From: a virus | Taxonomy: Duplodnaviria; Heunggongvirae; Uroviricota; Caudoviricetes | DNA length: 16,518 nt | IMG/VR virus record: IMGVR_UViG_2563366924_000007 | Direction: 5' to 3' (one strand) | Shown here: piece by piece, positions 195-15,533 of the stretch | Layout: each line of letters opens with the position of its first letter | Position numbering within the stretch: the stretch's first letter is position 1 | Translations under genes and position numbers: made by a program | The notes under the pieces: model-generated | The model's database searches: none | Seen by the model: the letters and a program-made list of their open reading frames with translations, nothing else | Told to the model about the DNA's origin: nothing

Positions 195-1856
195 TCAAAT
201 CCCGGTAAATTCGGCAAGTCGCTGCTTATGGCTATCGCTCATATCGAAAGCAAAATCCTCATGCTCAGCCTGGAAGGTGCCGAACGCCATCAGCGCAGAT
301 ACCGCAGGATCTATCTTGTTAGAGGATTTCTTTTTGTTGGGCTTAATGTTGGCGTTAGCGTCGGACTCCATCACCACGTTACCAATCGCCCAGGCCAGAA
401 CCGGATCGCCCCGATGGCGCACCACCTTGCGGTTTACGAACACCTCAAAGGATTTCGCTACCGGACTGAATTTAAGATAGGTTTGCGGGAACGGCTCCAC
501 ATCGAGGCCCGCCCCCTGCAGCTGGGTGCGTAGATGCGTGGCGTTCCACGTATCAAAACCCACCAGCCGAATGTTGAATGTTTCGGCATCACGCAAAATA
601 TCGTCACGGATGCGGTCATAGTCGATACAGTCACCGGGTGTGGTGCGTATCCAGCCCGCTTTCACCCACTGGCGGTAGATGGCGCGGTTTTTGTTGGCGA
701 CGTTAAGCAACTGTGCTTCCGGCAGATAATGACGGGTCAGGAGCCTGATCTCCCTGTCGAACGGGAAAGCGTAGCTCACGCTGGTGATATCGCTGGTAGA
801 GGACAGGTCAAACCCGGCGTAGCACTCCCTTCCGGCCAGATCTTCTTCGGTATAGTCGAGTGCACAGGCATCCCATGCACCGGCACCCATCCACGGCGTG
901 GAGCCCTGACACCAGATATTGAAACGTTTGGTCAGCATTTCCACCCACTGCGACGGTATGCCCCGTGCTTTCTGGATGGTGGATTCCAGTTTCGCCGCGT
1001 CAACGGATACATGCAGGTTAGGGTTGGCCTTGATCCACATTTCCGGCTGTTCAACCTCGCTTTCGTCGTCCAGCTCGTAGATCAGGACAAACAGCGAATC
1101 GTTGCTCTCTTCCCCGGCCAGAATCTGGCAGCAGTAGTCGTAATGCTGTTTGCAGGCGGAGACAACATTACTCCCGGCGGTGGTAATGGCGAACAGAACC
1201 GCCTCAGGACGTGCGCCCATGCCCAGCTCAAGCGCGGAATAAACGCCGTTATCCGGGTGAAGATGGTACTCATCGACAATCGCCAGGCTGGGGTTAGTGC
1301 CCTCAATGGTAGCCGCCTTCGCCGCCAGTGGCTTTAACAGGCTGTTGCTCTTCGGAAAAATGACCTTGTGCGCCTGAATATTGACGCGCTTTTTCAGCGG
1401 TTTTGACAGCAGACACATCTGGCGGGCATCGTCGAACACGATTCGGGCCTGATCCCGGCTCACCGCCGCCGTGTAGATATCCTGCTGGCCCTTCTCCATC
1501 ACCAGAAACCAGTTAGCCAGCATGGCGGCCACAGTGGATTTGGCATTCTTGCGCGGCACCTCAATAAACGCGCTGCTGTACTTCCGGCGGCCTGACTCCC
1601 TGACTTTAAAGCCCAGCAGGTTAGCAAAGGCGAACTGCTGCCACGGCTCCAGCTCGATTGGCTGGCCGCGCAGCGGGCCTTTGACGTGTGGACAGAGCCG
1701 GGAAAAGGCAATAAACCGCTCTACGGTCGCCGTATCGAACTCATAACGGGGGTCATTCAGGTCTGAAAAGTACCTCTCCACGGCCTGTTTTACACGCTTA
1801 CAGGCCGGAATTTCGCCCGTTTTTATCGCGTTTGCGTACTCATTCCAGACGGTCAA
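195..1856 (-). CDS. terL: Phage terminase large subunit
   Basis: 553 aa; P-loop-like segment IEVPRKNAKST, Walker B-like LAIVDEYHL, size and position after terS. Only in-frame start that includes the P-loop is TTG at 1856, preceded by a GAGGAAG Shine-Dalgarno-like sequence. Confidence 0.88.
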   Translation of the reverse strand: MTVWNEYANAIKTGEIPACKRVKQAVERYFSDLNDPRYEFDTATVERFIAFSRLCPHVKGPLRGQPIELEPWQQFAFANLLGFKVRESGRRKYSSAFIEVPRKNAKSTVAAMLANWFLVMEKGQQDIYTAAVSRDQARIVFDDARQMCLLSKPLKKRVNIQAHKVIFPKSNSLLKPLAAKAATIEGTNPSLAIVDEYHLHPDNGVYSALELGMGARPEAVLFAITTAGSNVVSACKQHYDYCCQILAGEESNDSLFVLIYELDDESEVEQPEMWIKANPNLHVSVDAAKLESTIQKARGIPSQWVEMLTKRFNIWCQGSTPWMGAGAWDACALDYTEEDLAGRECYAGFDLSSTSDITSVSYAFPFDREIRLLTRHYLPEAQLLNVANKNRAIYRQWVKAGWIRTTPGDCIDYDRIRDDILRDAETFNIRLVGFDTWNATHLRTQLQGAGLDVEPFPQTYLKFSPVAKSFEVFVNRKVVRHRGDPVLAWAIGNVVMESDANANIKPNKKKSSNKIDPAVSALMAFGTFQAEHEDFAFDMSDSHKQRLAEFTGI

Positions 1857-2196
1857 GCTCGTCTTCCTCTTCCGTTTCTACCGGATTCCGGCGGCGGCTC
1901 ACCGGATCAAAGCCCAGCAGCGACGACATTTTAATCATGATTTTTTCAGCATCGGCCTTTGCACTCAGTGCCGGATTTCGGCTCTCGCCACCCTGGCTGT
2001 TAACAATGCTGAACCCACGGCTGGCAAGGTCTTCCACGGCTTTGCGGTACATCGAATAGTTGACGCAAAAAAGCTCAAGGTTGTTCCAGTCGGCGGGTGT
2101 CAGATCGCCACGCTCGGCCAGTTGCTTCGCTTTCGCTTTCCACTGCTGCGCGGCTAACTCATCAAGGTAAGCTGGCGGTTTTGGTGGTCTTGCCAT
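1840..2196 (-). CDS. terS: Terminase small subunit (P27-like)
   Basis: Translation from ATG at 2196 (MARPPKPPAYLDELAAQQWKAKAKQLAERGDLTP...) resembles P27-family small terminases; the longer track ORF to 2364 is an alternative-start extension. Stop overlaps the terL start. Confidence 0.8.
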   Translation of the reverse strand: MARPPKPPAYLDELAAQQWKAKAKQLAERGDLTPADWNNLELFCVNYSMYRKAVEDLASRGFSIVNSQGGESRNPALSAKADAEKIMIKMSSLLGFDPVSRRRNPVETEEEDELDRLE

Positions 2197-2249
2197 AAAA
2201 ATTTCTCGTTTCCATCGCGTTTTATTTTCAAAAAAATCACCGTGCGTAA

Positions 2250-2320
2250 AAATTTGAGGGGGCGGGCGGTGCCTGGCACCTTGAGGTTTGTCCTGAAAAC
2301 CTCCCCCACCCCGTCCATGC
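2250..2320. other. Candidate cos/packaging site in the HNH-terS intergenic region
   Basis: Perfect 13-bp palindrome GGTGCCTGGCACC (2268-2280) flanked by a G-tract (GAGGGGGCGGGCGG) and a C-tract (CCTCCCCCACCCCGTCC), in a roughly 275-bp non-coding gap just upstream of terS. Confidence 0.3.
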
Positions 2321-2471
2321 GGCCTGTCAGCGGTTGCGGAAGCATTCCCGCAACTCCCGTTCACGCTCGCTCATACGCTGCACAGGCTGGCGCTCATTGC
2401 GTCTGCTTCGCCCCTGCATGAAGCCATCACGGCAGCGCATCAATGATCGGTACAGATTCACCACGTCTTTC

Positions 2472-2915
2472 TCATTCATTTCTGCCCTCATACATCCAGT
2501 CATTGCGATGGGCTGCACGCTCTTCCTGCTCACGGTACAGCCCTGCTTTGCGCTTCGCTTTGGTGGTTGGGTCTTGCTGTGTGGTCTTCTGGTTATGATG
2601 CGCCTGGCATAACGGCTGGTGATTCCACTCAGGCCAGAACAGAACGTCATCACCGCCGTTGATAGGGATGATGTGATCGACAATCTTTGCAGGAACGTAG
2701 AGGCCCAGCTTCTGACACTCAACGCACAGCGGATAGCGCTTAAGGTACTGAGCGCGGTACTTCTCCCATGAGGCTGAATAACCACGGGCGCGACGGTGGC
2801 CGCGTCTGGCATCCTCTGCCCGCCACGCTTCCCGCTTATGCTCGTCACACTTGCCAGACTTCACCCGTTTATTGCATCCCGGCTCTGTGCACCGGCGTAG
2901 TGGTTGCCACGGCAT
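2472..2915 (-). CDS. HNH endonuclease (packaging-associated)
   Basis: Cys/His-rich HNH-type motifs (CVECQKLG, HIIPINGGDD, NHQPLCQAHHNQK); ATG at 2915 overlaps the upstream stop; sits immediately before terS. Confidence 0.85.
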   Translation of the reverse strand: MPWQPLRRCTEPGCNKRVKSGKCDEHKREAWRAEDARRGHRRARGYSASWEKYRAQYLKRYPLCVECQKLGLYVPAKIVDHIIPINGGDDVLFWPEWNHQPLCQAHHNQKTTQQDPTTKAKRKAGLYREQEERAAHRNDWMYEGRNE

Positions 2916-3208
2916 CAGTACACCCCCACATCTCGGTAGACAGACCACAACGCAGAGACAGCCATCGGTATCTCTTTGGCGTCGGTGTCACCAATCATCG
3001 TGCGGTACTCGTACAGCTGAGAGACGTACATCAAACAGCCGATCTTGATAGCCGGGGTGAACTCCAGACCGTTATCAAATCGCTTGCCGATATGCTTCTG
3101 GCAGACCTCCAGCGCAGCTTCGATGTACGCCTGTATCAACGTATCTTCGTAATCATCATCAATACGGCAATGCAGCTTTGCTTCTTCCAGACCGATTAAC
3201 TCACTCAT
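2915..3208 (-). CDS. gp6-like head-tail connector / DNA-packaging protein
   Basis: Translation from ATG at 3208 (MSELIGLEEAKLHCRIDDDYEDTLIQAYIEAALEVCQKHIG...) matches the gp6-like connector pattern; GGAGG Shine-Dalgarno upstream; the track ORF to 3460 is an extension. Confidence 0.75.
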   Translation of the reverse strand: MSELIGLEEAKLHCRIDDDYEDTLIQAYIEAALEVCQKHIGKRFDNGLEFTPAIKIGCLMYVSQLYEYRTMIGDTDAKEIPMAVSALWSVYRDVGVY

Positions 3209-3539
3209 TGAAAATGCCTCCCTTGCACAGCAGCTCAAGCCGGGTGTGATCCACATCAGGAATGACGGCCACGATGCCGTAAACCTGCCCCCGGACGTTT
3301 GGCGAGCGGTACAGAATGCGGTTTGCGGTGGTGATATCGTCGCGGTAGCGCGTCCAGATTCGCACAGTGGCTTCGGAGTAAAGCGCCCCGGAAGACATGC
3401 GCTCACGCCCGCTGATAGCACGAATTTCAGCCCAGACTGAGGCAAGGTCAGCCCATTCATAGATAACCTGACCAGTCGGGTCGCGGTGAGATTCCGACTT
3501 CTGAAAGGTAACGCGGCGTTTCATCTTTCCGGCTCTCAT
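3201..3539 (-). CDS. Head-tail adaptor / head closure protein
   Basis: 112 aa with the pattern typical of this family (VWAEIRAISGRE...IWTRYR...LELLCKG); ATGA overlap with the portal stop. Confidence 0.75.
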   Translation of the reverse strand: MRAGKMKRRVTFQKSESHRDPTGQVIYEWADLASVWAEIRAISGRERMSSGALYSEATVRIWTRYRDDITTANRILYRSPNVRGQVYGIVAVIPDVDHTRLELLCKGGIFNE

Positions 3540-4771
3540 ACGTCACCGTCCTTGCTGTCTTTACTGATCTTCACTTCCTGCTTCCATGCCTGACTGAACT
3601 CGTCACCACCTTCACGCGGCGGCATACCCTCACGCTCACGGGCTTCGTTCGGGTTCATAATCCCGTTCTTGATACCGCGCTCATAAGTGGCGTAACGCTC
3701 GGTAGGTGTGGCACGGAGAAGGTCAGCGGAGTCAAACTCCACCAGATAGCGGGTTCCCGGAACGGGAGAGGCCACCAGCAGCGCGGATTTAATTTGTTGC
3801 TCGAAGTTCGCCAGCCACGGACGCATCGTCATGGTGAGAAATGCGCGGCTCGCCTCACTAAAATTGCTGTAGGTGCTGTTGCTGTATTCCTGCAAGAAGA
3901 TGGGAGAAACGTTAAACATGCGGGCAATGTCTTCAATGGAGAAGCGCCGGGAGGCCAGCCACTCAGCATCCTGATTGCTCATGCCAAGTTGCTTATAGTC
4001 CATGCCACCTTCAAGGATCGGCGTTTTCCCGGCATTTCTGGCACCTTTGTAACGTTCCAGCGCATCCATTGCCTGTTTGCCCTTCACGCTGTCGAGCCAT
4101 TCTTTAGTTACCACTACCCCCGAAGCCATCATCCCATCTTTCATAATGCTGGCACCGTGGCGCTGTTGTGCCAGACCTAACCCCAGCGCCTCACGGCAGA
4201 TGGTGATCGGCGAACGCCCCAGAAAACCATCATCGGTGGAGTAACGCAGGTGCAGAATCTCTTCCTGCAGGTAGGTGCGCACTGCCCCGGTAAACGGTTC
4301 AGTAACGGTGTATTTGTACTTATGCTGGCCGATACGCTCAGGAACAACCGCCCCCGGCGCATACGGATGCAGGGATTGCGGCTGGCCGTCACGGCCCCAC
4401 TGGATCACCGCATAGGCGTTACCATTCAGCAGGCAATGACGCATCATCGTGCGCTTGAACTGGTAAGGCGTCTGACAGTCGTTCGGTTGCTCGTTAAGGA
4501 GAAAATCCACCGGGTGATTGCTTAGCCACTCCCGCGCTTCTCGGCCGTTATCGTTGCGCACGCGGTAGAGGTAGCAGGGCATTGTTGCCACTGCCTCGCT
4601 GATAACTGATATGGCGTTCATGACCGCCGGCAGAGATTCCGCAGTACCGGCAGACACATATTCGCCTGATCCGGTATTTGGAATCCCTGCCATCGCCAGA
4701 AACTCATCAATCGTCATGCTGCGCTGTTCGGATGGCTCAGATTTACGGCCAAAAGGCCAGATATTCCACAT
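3536..4771 (-). CDS. Phage portal protein (HK97-type)
   Basis: 411 aa; position between protease and adaptor; sequence character of HK97-family portals. Confidence 0.88.
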   Translation of the reverse strand: MWNIWPFGRKSEPSEQRSMTIDEFLAMAGIPNTGSGEYVSAGTAESLPAVMNAISVISEAVATMPCYLYRVRNDNGREAREWLSNHPVDFLLNEQPNDCQTPYQFKRTMMRHCLLNGNAYAVIQWGRDGQPQSLHPYAPGAVVPERIGQHKYKYTVTEPFTGAVRTYLQEEILHLRYSTDDGFLGRSPITICREALGLGLAQQRHGASIMKDGMMASGVVVTKEWLDSVKGKQAMDALERYKGARNAGKTPILEGGMDYKQLGMSNQDAEWLASRRFSIEDIARMFNVSPIFLQEYSNSTYSNFSEASRAFLTMTMRPWLANFEQQIKSALLVASPVPGTRYLVEFDSADLLRATPTERYATYERGIKNGIMNPNEAREREGMPPREGGDEFSQAWKQEVKISKDSKDGDV

Positions 4772-5333: not shown

Positions 5334-5351
5334 TGTTGGACTCCACAGAGG

Positions 5352-5378
5352 GCAAAAAGGGGCCGAAGCCCCTTAAAC
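5352..5378 (-). terminator. Intrinsic terminator-like hairpin between capsid and protease genes
   Basis: On the minus strand GGGGC-uucg-GCCCC followed by UUUUUG. Confidence 0.5.
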
Positions 5379-5384
5379 GTCAGA

Positions 5385-10916: not shown

Positions 10917-11221
10917 TTGAACACCCCCTGACGCTGCCTGAGCACGAAACTGGCTGTGCAACTGTTCTGCTCCAGAGCCTTAGCTAACCGGGGAAGATTT
11001 CGCAGCGTGTCACCCAATAACATCATGTCGCGGCGTGCTTTTTCGTTGCTGTATTCCTCACTCAGCGATGCCTCAAGCATCAGGTTTCCAATCAGGGTAA
11101 GGGTATTGCTGACAGCGCGTGCTGCCTCGCTACAGACGTCAGAAACCTCAGATAAATCATCATCAGAATGTCTTCTGAAATCTGGCGCGTGCTTTACAAG
11201 TTGATGGTAAATATCACGCAT
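10913..11221 (-). CDS. Hypothetical protein (102 aa)
   Basis: ATG-initiated ORF within the coupled minus-strand operon; no recognised motif. Confidence 0.45.
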   Translation of the reverse strand: MRDIYHQLVKHAPDFRRHSDDDLSEVSDVCSEAARAVSNTLTLIGNLMLEASLSEEYSNEKARRDMMLLGDTLRNLPRLAKALEQNSCTASFVLRQRQGVFK

Positions 11222-11402
11222 GGGTCACCTCACTTGCCGCTTTTAGTTCACGAACGCGGGACAACGACATGCTGATCAGATCCATCGCAACGCTGTACTC
11301 GGTTTCATCATCAAAATTCATATACAGCGATGTTGAGAGCAACGCTTCCAGGCGGCGCAGTTCATCTTCAATGTCAATTTCCGACCATTTGACCTTACGC
11401 AT
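11214..11402 (-). CDS. Hypothetical small acidic protein (62 aa)
   Basis: ATG at 11402; overlaps the stop of the upstream ORF. Confidence 0.4.
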   Translation of the reverse strand: MRKVKWSEIDIEDELRRLEALLSTSLYMNFDDETEYSVAMDLISMSLSRVRELKAASEVTHA

Positions 11403-11607
11403 GGCGCACCTCCATACTCTGAAATGCGTGGAACGGCAGGCGGGCAGCGAAAACGAGGGTTACGCCGGGCATGGTGTCTCGGGCTTCCTGCTCACTGGAT
11501 GCGTTGACGTAGATTACCAACGGCTTTGCGGTTGGGTATCGCTCAGAGGTGAAGAGAAATCTCCATGTAAATTCCGGGCGAGTTTGGGTAGACTGATTGT
11601 CAGCCAT
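11395..11607 (-). CDS. Hypothetical protein (70 aa), first gene of the replication operon
   Basis: Internal ATG at 11607 (MADNQSTQTRPEFTW...) preceded by GAGGT; the longer track ORF to 12099 runs antisense through the RHH gene and is rejected. Confidence 0.4.
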   Translation of the reverse strand: MADNQSTQTRPEFTWRFLFTSERYPTAKPLVIYVNASSEQEARDTMPGVTLVFAARLPFHAFQSMEVRHA

Positions 11608-11637
11608 AACTGTTACCTCACTTAACGGTTTGGTGAG

Positions 11638-11679
11638 ACGCCTCGGTACTGCTCGAACAGTCCGGGGCGTTGTTTTTTT
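11638..11679 (+). terminator. Strong hairpin plus T-tract in the divergent regulatory region
   Basis: ACGCCTCGG ... CCGGGGCGT stem with an inner ACTG/CAGT stem, followed by TGTTTTTTT on the plus strand. Confidence 0.4.
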
Positions 11680-11700
11680 AGATAGCACCGTGTTAAGGTG

Positions 11701-11737
11701 TGTACCTATTAAAGAAAACATTACGCCAATAGGTACG
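11701..11737. promoter_or_regulatory. Candidate operator: 9-bp perfect inverted repeat just upstream of the RHH gene
   Basis: GTACCTATT (11702-11710) and AATAGGTAC (11729-11737) separated by 18 bp, ending 4 bp before the ATG at 11741. Confidence 0.35.
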
Positions 11738-11740
11738 CAC

Positions 11741-11935
11741 ATGTCAACACCCATTAAACGAGATCGGCAACCAAAAGGAGCCGGGAAAGCACCAGCGTTC
11801 CAGATTCGAATCCCCCCCGAACTTAAAGAGCAATTTGAAAAAGAAGCCCAAGCAGAGAGTGTTAGCCTCGCAAATTGGATGAAGGAATTAGGCCGGGAAG
11901 CCCTCCGAAAGAAAGGTATTGAGCCAAAAGGCTGA
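11741..11935 (+). CDS. Arc/CopG-like ribbon-helix-helix DNA-binding protein (64 aa), candidate repressor
   Basis: MSTPIKRDRQPKGAGKAPAFQIRIPPELKEQFEKEAQAESVSLANWMKELGREAL has a beta-strand plus two-helix RHH pattern; divergent from the replication operon. Confidence 0.5.
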   Translation: MSTPIKRDRQPKGAGKAPAFQIRIPPELKEQFEKEAQAESVSLANWMKELGREALRKKGIEPKG

Positions 11936-12032
11936 ATAAAATCAGCGGGCGCAGAATTGCGCTGGCTCATTCTTTGACCACCAGCATTAACCCTGGTATG
12001 CTTAATCTGTTTCGGTTTTTCGTAGTGACATT

Positions 12033-12060
12033 GGCAGCTCTGCAAAGCTGCCTTTGTTTT
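12033..12060 (+). terminator. Intrinsic terminator after the RHH gene
   Basis: GGCAGCT-ctgcaa-AGCTGCC followed by TTTGTTTT; abuts the ant stop codon on the other strand. Confidence 0.55.
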
Positions 12061-12838
12061 ATTCAGCGTCAGCATTCGGCACCTCCGGCAATACACCACC
12101 AGCGATCAGTCTTTTCGTTAACCACTGCTCACCTTTCCCTGTCAGCATCGTTGTGAATGAGGCTCTTACCTCGCCATTCGTTTCATACGTTCCCTGGCGA
12201 ACGGCAAAATAACCGCTATCGATATAACGCTGCATAGGCAGGTTGTGGCGCTGGCCGCCATTGATGAGAATCCCCTGTTGCCTCATCCAGCCGAATAATT
12301 TGATGGGGCCAAGCCCTACGGCTTTGGCATAGTTTGGAATGGAAATCCCCTTACTGATCTCTGCCACGCGATCAGCAAAATCAACTTTTGGCGCAGCGGC
12401 CACCAGCCGGTTTTCAAGTTCGCTTGCCTTTTCGGCAAGATCAGCGGCAAGGCGCAGGGCTTCCGGTAACGTCTGGGGGATATTAGCGGCGGCTTTTGCC
12501 TGGCGTTCGCAGTTGATGAAGTAGCGGCGTACCTCCCGCCCTTTTTCGTTGCGCTCAACCATTGCCAGCTCTTTACCCATATCAATAGTGATCAGGTAGT
12601 CATGTTCCATCTGCTGCCGAGATTTTGCGCTCGCCCGTTTTGGCGTGCTCAAACTTTCAACAATGATGTAATCGACTCCAGTAGTGAAGCCGTACTGGCT
12701 AATACGCCCTTTAATCCAGTTGGTGAAATCACGCCCAACGCCGAGAAACGCATGGAGTTTTTTTGCACTGACCAGCGATACCGTCACGCCGCCAATATTT
12801 CCGGGGTTAACCGGAACCAGCTCATTTAATTTTTGCAT
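12059..12838 (-). CDS. Phage antirepressor (AntA N-terminal plus KilAC C-terminal domain)
   Basis: N-terminal HDYLITIDMGKELAMVERNEKGREVRRYFINCE and a C-terminal KilAC-like region. Confidence 0.8.
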   Translation of the reverse strand: MQKLNELVPVNPGNIGGVTVSLVSAKKLHAFLGVGRDFTNWIKGRISQYGFTTGVDYIIVESLSTPKRASAKSRQQMEHDYLITIDMGKELAMVERNEKGREVRRYFINCERQAKAAANIPQTLPEALRLAADLAEKASELENRLVAAAPKVDFADRVAEISKGISIPNYAKAVGLGPIKLFGWMRQQGILINGGQRHNLPMQRYIDSGYFAVRQGTYETNGEVRASFTTMLTGKGEQWLTKRLIAGGVLPEVPNADAE

Positions 12839-12846
12839 AGCGCCCC

Positions 12847-13131
12847 CTACGCAGGTTTACGGTTGTAAGGGGTATTGACGTTCTCAACAGCAGGTGGATT
12901 GCGAACCCACCAAAGAACATCTGACAGAAGCCATGCGCAACTATTACGGCCAAAGTGGCAGCGTGGCGGGAATTTACCTTCGTTCTCCATATACCAGCGG
13001 GTGGAACGGGAAAGGCTGGTTATTTCGAAGCATTCACTTTCACGAATACGGCGATCAAACTTAATGCCATATTCTGCGAGAATGGTGCGGCGTTGTTCAG
13101 GTGTTGGCGGGGTAAAAAGAGTATTTGACAT
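12847..13131 (-). CDS. alpA: AlpA-family transcriptional regulator / excisionase-like protein
   Basis: HTH segment ITSLSRSTRWYMENEGKFPPRCHFGRNSCAWLLSDVLWWV; strong GGAGG Shine-Dalgarno before the ATG at 13131. Confidence 0.7.
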   Translation of the reverse strand: MSNTLFTPPTPEQRRTILAEYGIKFDRRIRESECFEITSLSRSTRWYMENEGKFPPRCHFGRNSCAWLLSDVLWWVRNPPAVENVNTPYNRKPA

Positions 13132-13235
13132 GCTTCCTCCACTTCACACATTCAGAAGGACACTTTCCTAACTGTTCTTGTGTTGTGGAGGAATATTGAT
13201 ATCTACATCATCTTACTGATACAGAAGAAAAAAAA

Positions 13236-14042
13236 TCATTTCCTACGCCTATTTTTTTGCTCAATCAACCTCTCCCGGATTTCTCTCTCAAACTTTTCCA
13301 ACGAAAAATTTGCAAGATTTTTTTCGAAAAAAGGCCGAATAGTTTCACAGAGTTTCTTTTCTCCGACTGATAGATCAGGGAAAATCGAACCGGCAATTAC
13401 ACTACTGCTTATCCTGTTTCCTGTAATTTTTTGCCAGCAGAACAGGTCAGCATAGGGGAAGATTCCATAACTTATTATCTTCCTTCTGGCTACTTCCCAA
13501 GAATTTATTGATAGTTCATTATTTGGGTCTGGAATATTTAAGGAATTTCGCCATGATGAAAGCAAAGATGATAAGTCTTCAATTAAAAATTCATCAGGAT
13601 AACGTAAATCCAATTTAACAAAGAAATCATCCCCGAAGTTATCAATCAGATTAATACAGTCCAGCAACCCCAAAGTATCAGCATCATCATATTCATCAAC
13701 TACTTTTTTAGAGTGCATTATTTTGAATATATCGTGACGCTGTAAAGGCTCAATCAGCATTGACGAACCAAGCCGTTTACCTGCATTTGAGTTATCTTCC
13801 TGCATATCGGATTGCACGCAATCAACACCAGCAAAAGCATCCTCACTATATTTTCTGTCAGCTACTGGATTAGACATTATTATTTTTAAATCATCTTCAT
13901 CTATCCATTTCTCATAGTCTGCGACCATATAATGACGCATTAATAACTGATTAAAAAACTCTCTATCATCTAATGATTCAAAAGTTTTATATTTCCCTAT
14001 ATCGAAATACTCCGGCAAATCGCTTTTCTTGTTAATTAACAT
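13236..14042 (-). CDS. Hypothetical protein (268 aa), markedly AT-rich, adjacent to the integrase; candidate cargo gene
   Basis: Clean ORF with a GAGGGTG Shine-Dalgarno-like sequence; by eye far more AT-rich than the flanking integrase and alpA; acidic, no recognised catalytic motif. Confidence 0.6.
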   Translation of the reverse strand: MLINKKSDLPEYFDIGKYKTFESLDDREFFNQLLMRHYMVADYEKWIDEDDLKIIMSNPVADRKYSEDAFAGVDCVQSDMQEDNSNAGKRLGSSMLIEPLQRHDIFKIMHSKKVVDEYDDADTLGLLDCINLIDNFGDDFFVKLDLRYPDEFLIEDLSSLLSSWRNSLNIPDPNNELSINSWEVARRKIISYGIFPYADLFCWQKITGNRISSSVIAGSIFPDLSVGEKKLCETIRPFFEKNLANFSLEKFEREIRERLIEQKNRRRK

Positions 14043-14133
14043 ATCGTCACCCTCAACGCCCCTAATAACTTGCGAGCCAGGCGGGTAGGGTTTCCCGCTT
14101 TTCGGTTGGCCGACCTAGACCCGCAATATCAGT

Positions 14134-15360
14134 TTAATCTCTATTCGCTACAGGTAACAGAACAACATTTTGATGATTACCCGCAAGAAGTTCTAAGCGG
14201 TCATACCACTTGTTCAGCGCGTCCAGCTTCTCCGGCAAGTACAGACTACGGTTATAAATCGCCATAACTCCCGGCATTGAATGGCCCAGCAACTGTTCAA
14301 CAACGTGCGGAGCGATACCCATATTATTCATATGCGTTGCAAGCGTTCGCCGTAGATCATGCAATGTCCAAGGTTCAGAATGCCCCAGTTTTTTATAAAC
14401 ACTACGGCCCCACTGGCTAACCGCTTCGCTATTCTTCACAACCCCAAGAAGGTAGCCGGATGATTTTGTTTCATCGTGGAGCATTTCAATAAATGAACGC
14501 ATCGCCTCCGGAACTGGACGCACAATCTTTTCACCGCCTTTACTATGCGCTTTTGGTACTGTCCACATCCACGCCTCCATATCCCATTCGGCCCACTCTG
14601 ACAATCTGGCCTCCTGGGTGCGGCAACCAAACAAAGTAGTGATCCTGAGCAAGTTTGTGTAGTAAGGCAGAAAAACATCGCCGGACGATATAGCAGCCCA
14701 CAATCCCCCAACCTCTTTATCTTTCAGTACACGATCTTTTTTCGCCTGCTTTTTACCAACATCGGGAATACTCAAATCTTCAAGGGCGGTACTGACGGCG
14801 TAACGGCGAACGCGGCAGAATTTCAGAGCCTGCTTACACATCTGGAATACATAACCAGCAGCAACCGGCGTTTTCTTTTTCATCCTGTCAAAGCAGTCAA
14901 GCCAGTAACGGGTTTCGCAGTCAGCGAGCGCCATTTTCCCAATATAAGGGTAAATGTGTTTGCGCAGCTCCGCTTTATGCCGCTCAACGTTCGCACGGTT
15001 TTCTTCCGCATATTCGCGTATCCAGTATTCGATAGCTTCCTGCACCGTGACCGGTTTAAGCGTTTCCTGAGTAGTTAGCGCCAACTGGTGCTTTGGGTCT
15101 TTACCAGAGGCCAGCCACTGACGACATTTATCACGCGAGGAACGGGCCTCTTTGAGACTCATATCAGGGTAGCGCCCCAGAGTCAGCCGATGCAGCTTCT
15201 GCCCGTCGAGTCGGTAAGTAAACACCCAGCTAATGCCACCAGCTTTCGTTACCTTAGCGCTCAACCCGGCACCATCAGCATAAAACTCAATCTTACTGGC
15301 CGGGATGCCATGTAATCCCTTTAACTTCCTGTCGCTCAGTTTGTTAAGTTCGCCAGCCAT
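14134..15360 (-). CDS. int: Tyrosine site-specific integrase (P4-like)
   Basis: 408 aa with catalytic-domain pattern (R in FGCRTQEARL, HDLRRTLATH, LLGHS, Y in AIYNRSLY) and an N-terminal arm-binding-like region. Confidence 0.9.
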   Translation of the reverse strand: MAGELNKLSDRKLKGLHGIPASKIEFYADGAGLSAKVTKAGGISWVFTYRLDGQKLHRLTLGRYPDMSLKEARSSRDKCRQWLASGKDPKHQLALTTQETLKPVTVQEAIEYWIREYAEENRANVERHKAELRKHIYPYIGKMALADCETRYWLDCFDRMKKKTPVAAGYVFQMCKQALKFCRVRRYAVSTALEDLSIPDVGKKQAKKDRVLKDKEVGGLWAAISSGDVFLPYYTNLLRITTLFGCRTQEARLSEWAEWDMEAWMWTVPKAHSKGGEKIVRPVPEAMRSFIEMLHDETKSSGYLLGVVKNSEAVSQWGRSVYKKLGHSEPWTLHDLRRTLATHMNNMGIAPHVVEQLLGHSMPGVMAIYNRSLYLPEKLDALNKWYDRLELLAGNHQNVVLLPVANRD

Positions 15361-15380
15361 AGACCATCACCCAGCCCAAA

Positions 15381-15403
15381 GTGTTTATACAAATGTTTAT
15401 ACA
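15381..15403. repeat. Tandem direct repeat upstream of int
   Basis: TGTTTATACA at 15381-15390 and 15394-15403, in AT-rich DNA between the int start and the element boundary. Confidence 0.3.
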
Positions 15404-15533
15404 GAATTGCTTGCATAATAGCATAAACAACAAAAAGCACTGGAACAATATACAGTTACATTTTCATTTAACTGATTGATTTTAAATAAAATATAAAAAC
15501 CACCGCAAAGCATGAAAACAGCTAATCTGACAG

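Follow-up and report, generated by a model that had tools for sequence, protein, structure and literature searches.

In phage HK97, the small terminase TerS is a nonamer whose minimal binding site spans positions +15 to +29 of cos, where a specific G:C pair and an adjoining A-tract are needed (PMC11331095). Bound TerS stalls the packaging motor at cos, and the HNH protein gp74 stimulates cleavage to leave 10-nt 3′ overhangs, as described in PMC11331095 and PMC9410871; a preliminary description of the DNA studied here had stated that the HNH protein assists HK97 cos cleavage, in agreement with this literature. The ends of Burkholderia phage phi644-2 are 10-base 3′ extensions, with the right end reading 5′-CGCCCGCTTC-3′ (PMC2920897). 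Phages SfI, P27, SfV and ST64B have homologous packaging genes, and run-off sequencing of SfI virion DNA revealed a 10-nt gap, TGCCCGCCCC, relative to the prophage (PMC3636060). Two preprints on capsid-forming phage-inducible islands (cf-PICIs), including 10.1101/2025.02.11.637232, describe HNH, TerS, TerL and cohesive ends, the position and sequence of cos not being given; in the island KpCIDSM30104, concatemers reportedly form through cohesive cos ends (10.1101/2025.02.11.637232).

Here we analysed a stretch of DNA of 16,518 nt, hereafter referred to as the window, which contains an island of approximately 16 kb. With a probability of about 0.88, the gap at 2197–2326 holds a cos site that belongs to the island itself and is of the P27/phiE125/HK97 kind, cut with the assistance of an HNH protein into 10-nt 3′ cohesive ends. 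The preliminary description had proposed an HK97-like module with cos located between HNH and terS, and gene order, homology and the ends of relatives all agree with that placement.

Gene content and the non-coding gap of the packaging module

The genes of interest all lie on the minus strand. Judged by its gene content, which agrees with the cf-PICI definition of 10.1101/2025.02.11.637232, the island is a capsid-forming phage-inducible island of the cf-PICI type. The large terminase gene terL (195–1856, minus strand) encodes a 553-residue protein of the HK97 type carrying PF03354 and PF20441, which matches the HK97 TerL structure 6z6d with an E-value of 7e-45. The adjacent terS (1840–2196, minus strand) encodes a 118-residue small terminase of the P27 family (PF05119, E-value 3e-25), sharing 38% identity with phi644-2 TerS (E-value 5e-23) and 33% with phiP27 L35 (E-value 1e-19). 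On the far side of the gap, the HNH endonuclease gene (2472–2915, minus strand; PF01844) encodes a 147-residue homologue of HK97 gp74, with 40% identity to gp74 (E-value 5e-20), 38% to the phi644-2 HNH protein and 39% to phiP27 L34. Further genes are assigned by Pfam to a head-tail connector, a head-closure protein, a portal, an S78 prohead protease and an HK97-fold capsid protein. A 99% identical copy of the island, annotated in RefSeq, resides in E. coli KCJ3K291 as a block of approximately 16 kb between fis and yhdJ; this copy also has an integrase, regulators and a DUF927 replication protein, and is without tail or lysis genes. From Pfam and RefSeq together, the order is capsid, protease, portal, head closure, connector, HNH, a 50-residue ORF, the gap, terS and terL, and the order HNH, gap, terS-terL is the same as in phiP27, phi644-2 and HK97.

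The ORF of 50 residues between HNH and cos (2327–2479, minus strand) is arginine-rich and conserved, is annotated by RefSeq in the 99% identical island, and shares its first 8 nt with the end of the HNH gene. An intact copy is present in each of the 110 alignable relatives, where variable columns are distributed 27/19/40 over the three codon positions, i.e., with a third-position excess. Its protein finds no match in a Pfam search and shares 42% identity with the EcCIEDL933-type ORF. In EcCIEDL933-type islands the counterpart measures 60–61 residues and has the C-terminus RDRE..ECFRNR in common with it, and in Pasteurella Pmp8 the ORF is missing. The product may be a packaging accessory.

The non-coding gap between this ORF and terS (2197–2326) is 130 bp long, the largest of the capsid-to-terL module, the next largest being 51 bp at 5334–5384. 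A sizeable non-coding gap had been described for this module; its being the largest stands, but the range given for it, 2197–2471, is about half coding, as it includes most of the ORF at 2327–2479. In gene orientation, the gap reads GGACGGGGTGGGGGAGG TTTTCAGGAC AAACCTCAAGGTGCC AGGCAC CGCCCGCCCC|CTCAAATTTTTACGCACGGTGATTTTTTTGAAAATAAA...ATG(terS), where the vertical line marks the predicted cut. The terS frame is open upstream across the cos site (1840–2364, minus strand), and public protein sets contain many "TerS" calls of 165–168 residues that read through cos and look like start-codon errors.

Predicted cohesive ends, placed by homology and by assemblies of relatives

The predicted cosN occupies 2259–2268, reading CGCCCGCCCC 5′ to 3′ on the minus strand and GGGGCGGGCG on the plus strand. 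Nicks are predicted at 2259|2258 on the minus strand and at 2268|2269 on the plus strand, which would generate 10-nt 3′ overhangs; the end positions, taken from a relative and from homology, could be off by one base. A BLAST search of the gap against a phage collection identified the Stx2e phage P27, the namesake of the TerS family. The phiP27 record (AJ298298) annotates a 10-nt "cos-site" at 21806–21815, between the HNH homologue and TerS, and this sequence, CGCCCGCCCC, equals window 2268–2259 at 10 of 10 bases, with flanks, GGGAC and GTCAAATTTTTAC, almost identical to those in the window. The gap aligns gap-free to the mapped or annotated cos sites of phi644-2, phiP27, ST64B and HK97. In phi644-2, whose record has the HNH gene at the opposite end from terS, the joined ends read ...GGGACCGCCCGCTTC|GTCAAATTTTCACGCCCGCGAAAAATGAAATTT, and the junction 35-mer matches the window at 27 of 35 positions, gap-free, only at the cos register; the next best window position reaches 19, and the maxima of 40 shuffled windows range from 19 to 24. 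When the HK97 junction alone was used in an ungapped scan of the window, the true register came second with a 100-mer and was lost with 35–45-mers, so HK97 backs the architecture of the site with no statistically significant sequence match. As in P27/phiE125-type HNH-assisted 3′-cos sites, the segment lies between HNH and terS-terL, is accompanied by a P27-family small terminase (PF05119), is homologous in register with mapped cos ends and, in an 89–92% identical relative, is a 10-bp cohesive segment flanked by unique ends.

That relative, IMGVR_UViG_3300022664_000095, is a metagenome contig of 15,518 bp with 89–92% identity to the island, and BLAST against the window reveals it to be an excised, circularly permuted island opened at cos. 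Its base 1 is window 2258 and its last base is 2269, with 2259–2268 absent. The contig starts with CTCAAATTTTTACGCACGG and ends with ...GGGGTGGGGGAGGTTTTCAGGACAAAACCCAAGCCGCAAGGCAC; its positions 1–2062 align to window 2258–195, 2953–4412 to 15617–14155 (the integrase side) and 11074–15518 to 6697–2269. The stretch 2259–2268 is the sole part of the gap missing from the contig, and the same ten bases are predicted from phi644-2 and P27. Blunt-ending trims 3′ overhangs, while 5′ overhangs get filled in and show at both ends. The ten bases are missing, not duplicated, which fits 3′ cohesive ends, as blunt-ending removes 3′ overhangs; from these missing bases and from the relatives, we deduce that the ends of the present island are probably of 3′ polarity as well. 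Among public contigs, this is the only one with both ends at the site. A first IMG/VR scan with TerS found 80 loci in which the upstream DNA continues throughout, with no ends at the site, and none of the 27 loci from a metagenome scan with the cosB pattern clearly ends there.

A linear assembly of 16,548 bp, vB_KppS-Ant (LR881103), starts 22 bp before terS and ends with ...GGAGGTTTTCAGGAC. On the chromosome of the source strain, K. pneumoniae DSM 30104 (ATCC 13883), the gap is complete, with 69 more bases between the vB_KppS-Ant ends, and the predicted cut splits these 69 absent bases into 31 and 38. Transposase libraries lose a few tens of bases at each end of linear molecules, so a loss of 31 and 38 nt is expected of such a library made from a linear molecule. 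The sequenced DNA was obtained from a K. pneumoniae DSM 30104 lysate and prepared as a Nextera XT library (PMC8006926). In its publication, the record (LR881103.1) was assigned to a new genus of filamentous ssDNA phages; it is packaged KpCIDSM30104 DNA.

Several other public records have breaks, or apparent breaks, near this type of site. At one locus of the cosB-pattern scan, on a 22-kb metagenome contig (JAEHJW020008655.1), the stretch stops at position +3 of the cos core, which may reflect the end of the contig, a scaffold join or a storage boundary. The 106.5-kb record of "Klebsiella phage P12620-1" (PQ569648.1) contains a capsid-forming island segment at 90.6–106.5 kb whose junction with unrelated phage DNA falls precisely on the start of terS and whose other end coincides with the stop codon of the 50-residue ORF; two linear molecules appear to have been merged into a chimeric assembly. 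Single Xenorhabdus genomes can carry many terS-plus-cos modules, for instance six or more in X. kozodoii and five in X. innexi, and several draft contigs of Xenorhabdus and Photorhabdus break within or beside such a module.

Among the known systems, P27, together with SfV/SfI, ST64B and prophage e14, has the same order of HNH, cos, P27-family TerS and TerL. The P27 cos is identical to CGCCCGCCCC of the island, its flanks are nearly identical from −13 to +13 and its G-tract lies at −54 to −42, yet from +14 onward the two diverge, with ACCCGCGAAATTAAAAATTTC in P27 and GCACGGTGATTTTTTTGAAAA in the island. The P27 TerS is only 33% identical to that of the island, and hence its recognition specificity probably differs. 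P27 is moreover a complete phage, whereas the island is tail-less, and the 50-residue ORF between HNH and cos is unannotated in P27. The Burkholderia phages phiE125, phi1026b and phi644-2 have 10-base 3′ extensions, CGCCCGCTTC, that differ from CGCCCGCCCC of the island at three bases; they carry the HNH gene at the right end and a P27-family TerS (38% identical) at the left end, but their A/T tract is of opposite polarity (AAAAAT versus TTTTTTT in the island) and their host is a Betaproteobacterium. HK97 resembles the island in its G-tract at about −55 to −42, ACC|CGCC at the upstream nick, a 10-nt 3′ overhang, ACGC at +12 to +15, a T-run near +23 to +30 and homologous TerL and HNH proteins, and differs from it in the overhang, CGCCGCCAAA, and in gp1, which belongs to another TerS sequence family. 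EcCIEDL933 and KpCIDSM30104 agree with the island in type and gene order; the EcCIEDL933-type gap aligns gap-free, and its overhang would be CGAACGCCTC, four bases off. The cosQ-cosN-cosB arrangement of phage lambda makes a three-part layout plausible here, and lambda packaging likewise starts toward the terminase genes; in contrast to the island, lambda cos has 12-nt 5′ overhangs and is served by the Nu1/gpA terminase without an HNH protein. A lambda-type 5′-cos was rejected for the present site, as TerL and TerS are of other families and the ten bases are missing instead of repeated at the ends.

Conserved parts of the site and the inverted repeat

Conservation was measured on 137 distinct versions of the gap, drawn from IMG/VR, GTDB (one genome per species) and E. 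coli genomes and anchored on the cut. The gap-free alignment holds from E. coli to Proteus, Xenorhabdus, Gilliamella, Aeromonas and Pasteurella. Conservation peaks at +1 to +38 and −10 to −1, where the mean information content is 1.77 bits (+1 to +15), 1.58 bits (+16 to +29), 1.59 bits (+30 to +38) and 1.34 bits (−10 to −1), and the island matches the consensus at every highly conserved position. The most conserved part of the gap, at 1.6–1.8 bits, is a cosB-like recognition block, CTCAAATTTTTACGCACGGTGATTTTTTTGAAAATAAA (2221–2258, +1 to +38, minus strand), in which ACGC at +12 to +15 and the A/T tract keep the register seen in HK97 and phi644-2. Within it, CACGGTGATTTTTTT (2230–2244, +15 to +29) is the likely counterpart of the HK97 minimal TerS site and a putative binding site of the island TerS. 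The HK97 position was transferred by DNA register and conservation alone, because the island TerS has no detectable similarity to gp1: BLAST finds none, and gp1 has no PF05119 match. A phmmer search with the island TerS finds no match among PDB sequences. A structure model of the island TerS, with a modest pLDDT of 66.7, has no Foldseek match in the PDB at an E-value of 0.001 or below; its best TM-scores, 0.47–0.48, are with HK97 TerS chains (8pop), at E-values above 1. An HK97 cos in the strict sense was set aside, the TerS showing no sequence similarity to gp1 and the fold comparison not being significant.

Upstream of the cut, a 15-nt spacer (2275–2289, −31 to −17, minus strand) is of fixed length among the variants compared and of variable sequence; at 0.66 bits it is the lowest within the site, and it contains the terS-distal arm of the inverted repeat discussed below. 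Farther upstream lie a moderately conserved block, TTTTCAGGAC (2290–2299, −41 to −32, minus strand; 0.95 bits), at whose downstream edge the vB_KppS-Ant assembly ends exactly, and the G-tract GGGGTGGGGGAGG (2300–2312, −54 to −42, minus strand), which is conserved at 1.22 bits for −55 to −42; further out, −75 to −56 averages 0.46 bits. The register of the G-tract is unchanged in HK97, phiP27, ST64B, phi644-2 and islands of Enterobacterales, Pasteurellales, Orbales and Aeromonas. It is possibly needed for termination or for docking of HNH or TerL. In every HK97/P27-type site examined, the tract ends at −42 (window 2300–2312; 670–682 in locus L354; the right ends of HK97 and phi644-2). Upstream of a terS of Xenorhabdus hominickii, it has grown to five tandem GGGGTA units, which are telomere-like and have quadruplex potential. 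The spacer, the most variable stretch of the gap, has strongly conserved blocks on both sides, and short inverted repeats recur in it and its equivalents at shifting registers.

The inverted repeat GGTGCCTGGCACC (GGTGCC-T-GGCACC, 2268–2280) has 6-bp perfect arms and a central T. It had been described as a perfect palindrome: the arms are indeed fully complementary, but the 1-nt centre means that it is no strict palindrome. The G-rich tract GAGGGGGCGGGCGG (2256–2269) on its low side, the C-rich tract CCTCCCCCACCCCGTCC (2300–2316) on its high side and A/T tracts at 2229–2236 and 2249–2255 are all present, and the tracts reported in the preliminary description are real parts of the site. As a notable feature, and as the hallmark or centre of the site, the repeat did not hold up. 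Inverted repeats with 6-bp arms and loops of 0–3 nt number 14 in the window, as compared with 15.9 ± 4.3 in shuffles, and 9% of shuffled gaps hold one or more. The full palindrome is found in a subset of relatives only: the arm at 2268–2273 corresponds to the conserved GG(C/A)ACC beside the cut, and the arm at 2275–2280 is variable, lying in the least conserved block among the 137 distinct relatives. The cut falls in the adjacent G-rich tract (plus strand) and only reaches the first base of the repeat. The palindrome is incidental, the cut lying just beside it. A repeat search over 2150–2520 returned short families at chance level, the 6-bp-arm palindrome being below the length threshold of that search. 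Elsewhere in the window, TTTTTTTCGAAAAAA (13318–13332) is the longest A/T palindrome and lies in a regulatory region near divergent small genes.

That the palindrome is itself cosN, cut symmetrically by terminase in the manner of the partial dyad of lambda cosN, is nevertheless suggested by its perfect arms and its position within the gap, and dyad symmetry at −32 to −8 is mildly enriched among relatives: the mean longest stem is 3.54 versus 3.00 ± 0.08 in shuffles, stems of 4 bp or longer occur in 40% of blocks versus 23% in shuffles, and one pair (GGTGCC/GGCACC versus GTTCC/GGAAC) appears compensatory. The kinship of the sequences inflates this enrichment, which is therefore a lead only, and the cohesive bases fall at 2259–2268 according to the contig ends, the cos feature of phiP27 and the ends of phi644-2 alike. 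Given that this segment touches only the first base of the repeat, and that such repeats occur at chance frequency, we regard a palindromic cosN as highly improbable. Equally improbable, in our estimate, is a gap that serves mainly as a transcriptional element of terS-terL, be it a terminator, an attenuator, a promoter or a small RNA, with packaging initiated elsewhere or by headful. In favour of such an element, base pairing of the G-tract with the C-tract on the coding strand could enclose two small hairpins, with a U run after them. The predicted fold of the gap RNA (−38.2 kcal/mol, z = −0.53) is, however, no better than that of shuffles, a consensus scan of 1800–3000 finds no promoter-like or terminator-like site, and the same range has no Rfam match at E-values up to 1. 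The pairing of the two tracts was also set aside as a conserved structure, as any G-run pairs with any C-run. A regulatory role of the gap would not exclude cos function.

Headful packaging is contradicted by defined ends at the site in packaged relatives, and a pac site was rejected: in place of permuted, terminally redundant ends, two independent assemblies of packaged relatives have fixed ends. The site might also be an intact-looking relic in an island that is no longer mobilised, as the function of the island is read here from sequence alone. This is very unlikely, since the packaging and capsid genes are all full length with strong family matches, copies 98–99% identical to the island are carried by unrelated E. 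coli strains, and the site is consensus at its highly conserved positions.

Proposed packaging model and significance for islands and phages

If the gap is the cos site of the island, induction by a helper phage would lead to excision of the island and its replication into concatemers. The P27-family TerS would bind 2258–2221, where ACGC, a brief G/C stretch and seven consecutive T lie in the register of the HK97 TerS site. TerL and the HNH protein would then nick the strands 10 bp apart, the minus strand at 2259|2258 and the plus strand at 2268|2269, to leave the 3′ extension 5′-CGCCCGCCCC-3′; which protein cuts which strand is only suggested by analogy with HK97. Packaging would proceed from 2258 toward terS and terL, over the joined island ends, and through int, the replication genes, the capsid genes and HNH to the next cos, where the upstream G-tract at 2300–2312 may aid termination. 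After injection, the cohesive ends would anneal and the circle would integrate.

A site of this kind is well known, the mechanism is not new, and a cos between hnh and terS is what a specialist expects in a capsid-forming island. Only two parts might be new, namely the G-tract, whose register is constant, and the variable spacer of fixed length, and neither is mentioned in the available portions of the HK97 cos papers. We tentatively propose, while considering it rather doubtful, that HNH-assisted 3′-cos sites have an undescribed third part, consisting of a fixed G-tract at −54 to −42 followed by a dyad-prone spacer of fixed length and free sequence, and that the TerS-binding block of the islands has diverged, which would underlie exclusive packaging. 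The third part would be common to HK97, P27, ST64B, phi644-2 and the capsid-forming islands. If the proposal is true, it could act in termination like lambda cosQ, or as a docking site for the HNH protein. The cohesive bases and the first 13 downstream bases are common to P27 and the island, after which the sequences diverge together with TerS, and this would readily account for a separate packaging specificity; a P27-like cleavage sequence combined with a diverged TerS block would, if the proposal holds, physically explain why island and phage DNA are packaged to the exclusion of each other.

With this site, capsid-forming islands gain a cos predicted to the base. A homologue of the terS-cos segment is found in 534 of 5,426 complete E. 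coli genomes and also occurs across Enterobacterales, Pasteurellales, Orbales and Aeromonas, so that automatic annotation is feasible in hundreds of E. coli genomes. The cos site explains breaks in virion-derived assemblies as well as the over-long TerS calls made by some gene callers. The segment at approximately 2221–2312 is a short candidate fragment for island-specific transduction, and P27 and the island, equal in cleavage sequence and unlike in the downstream block, offer a clear comparison for how terminases tell DNAs apart.
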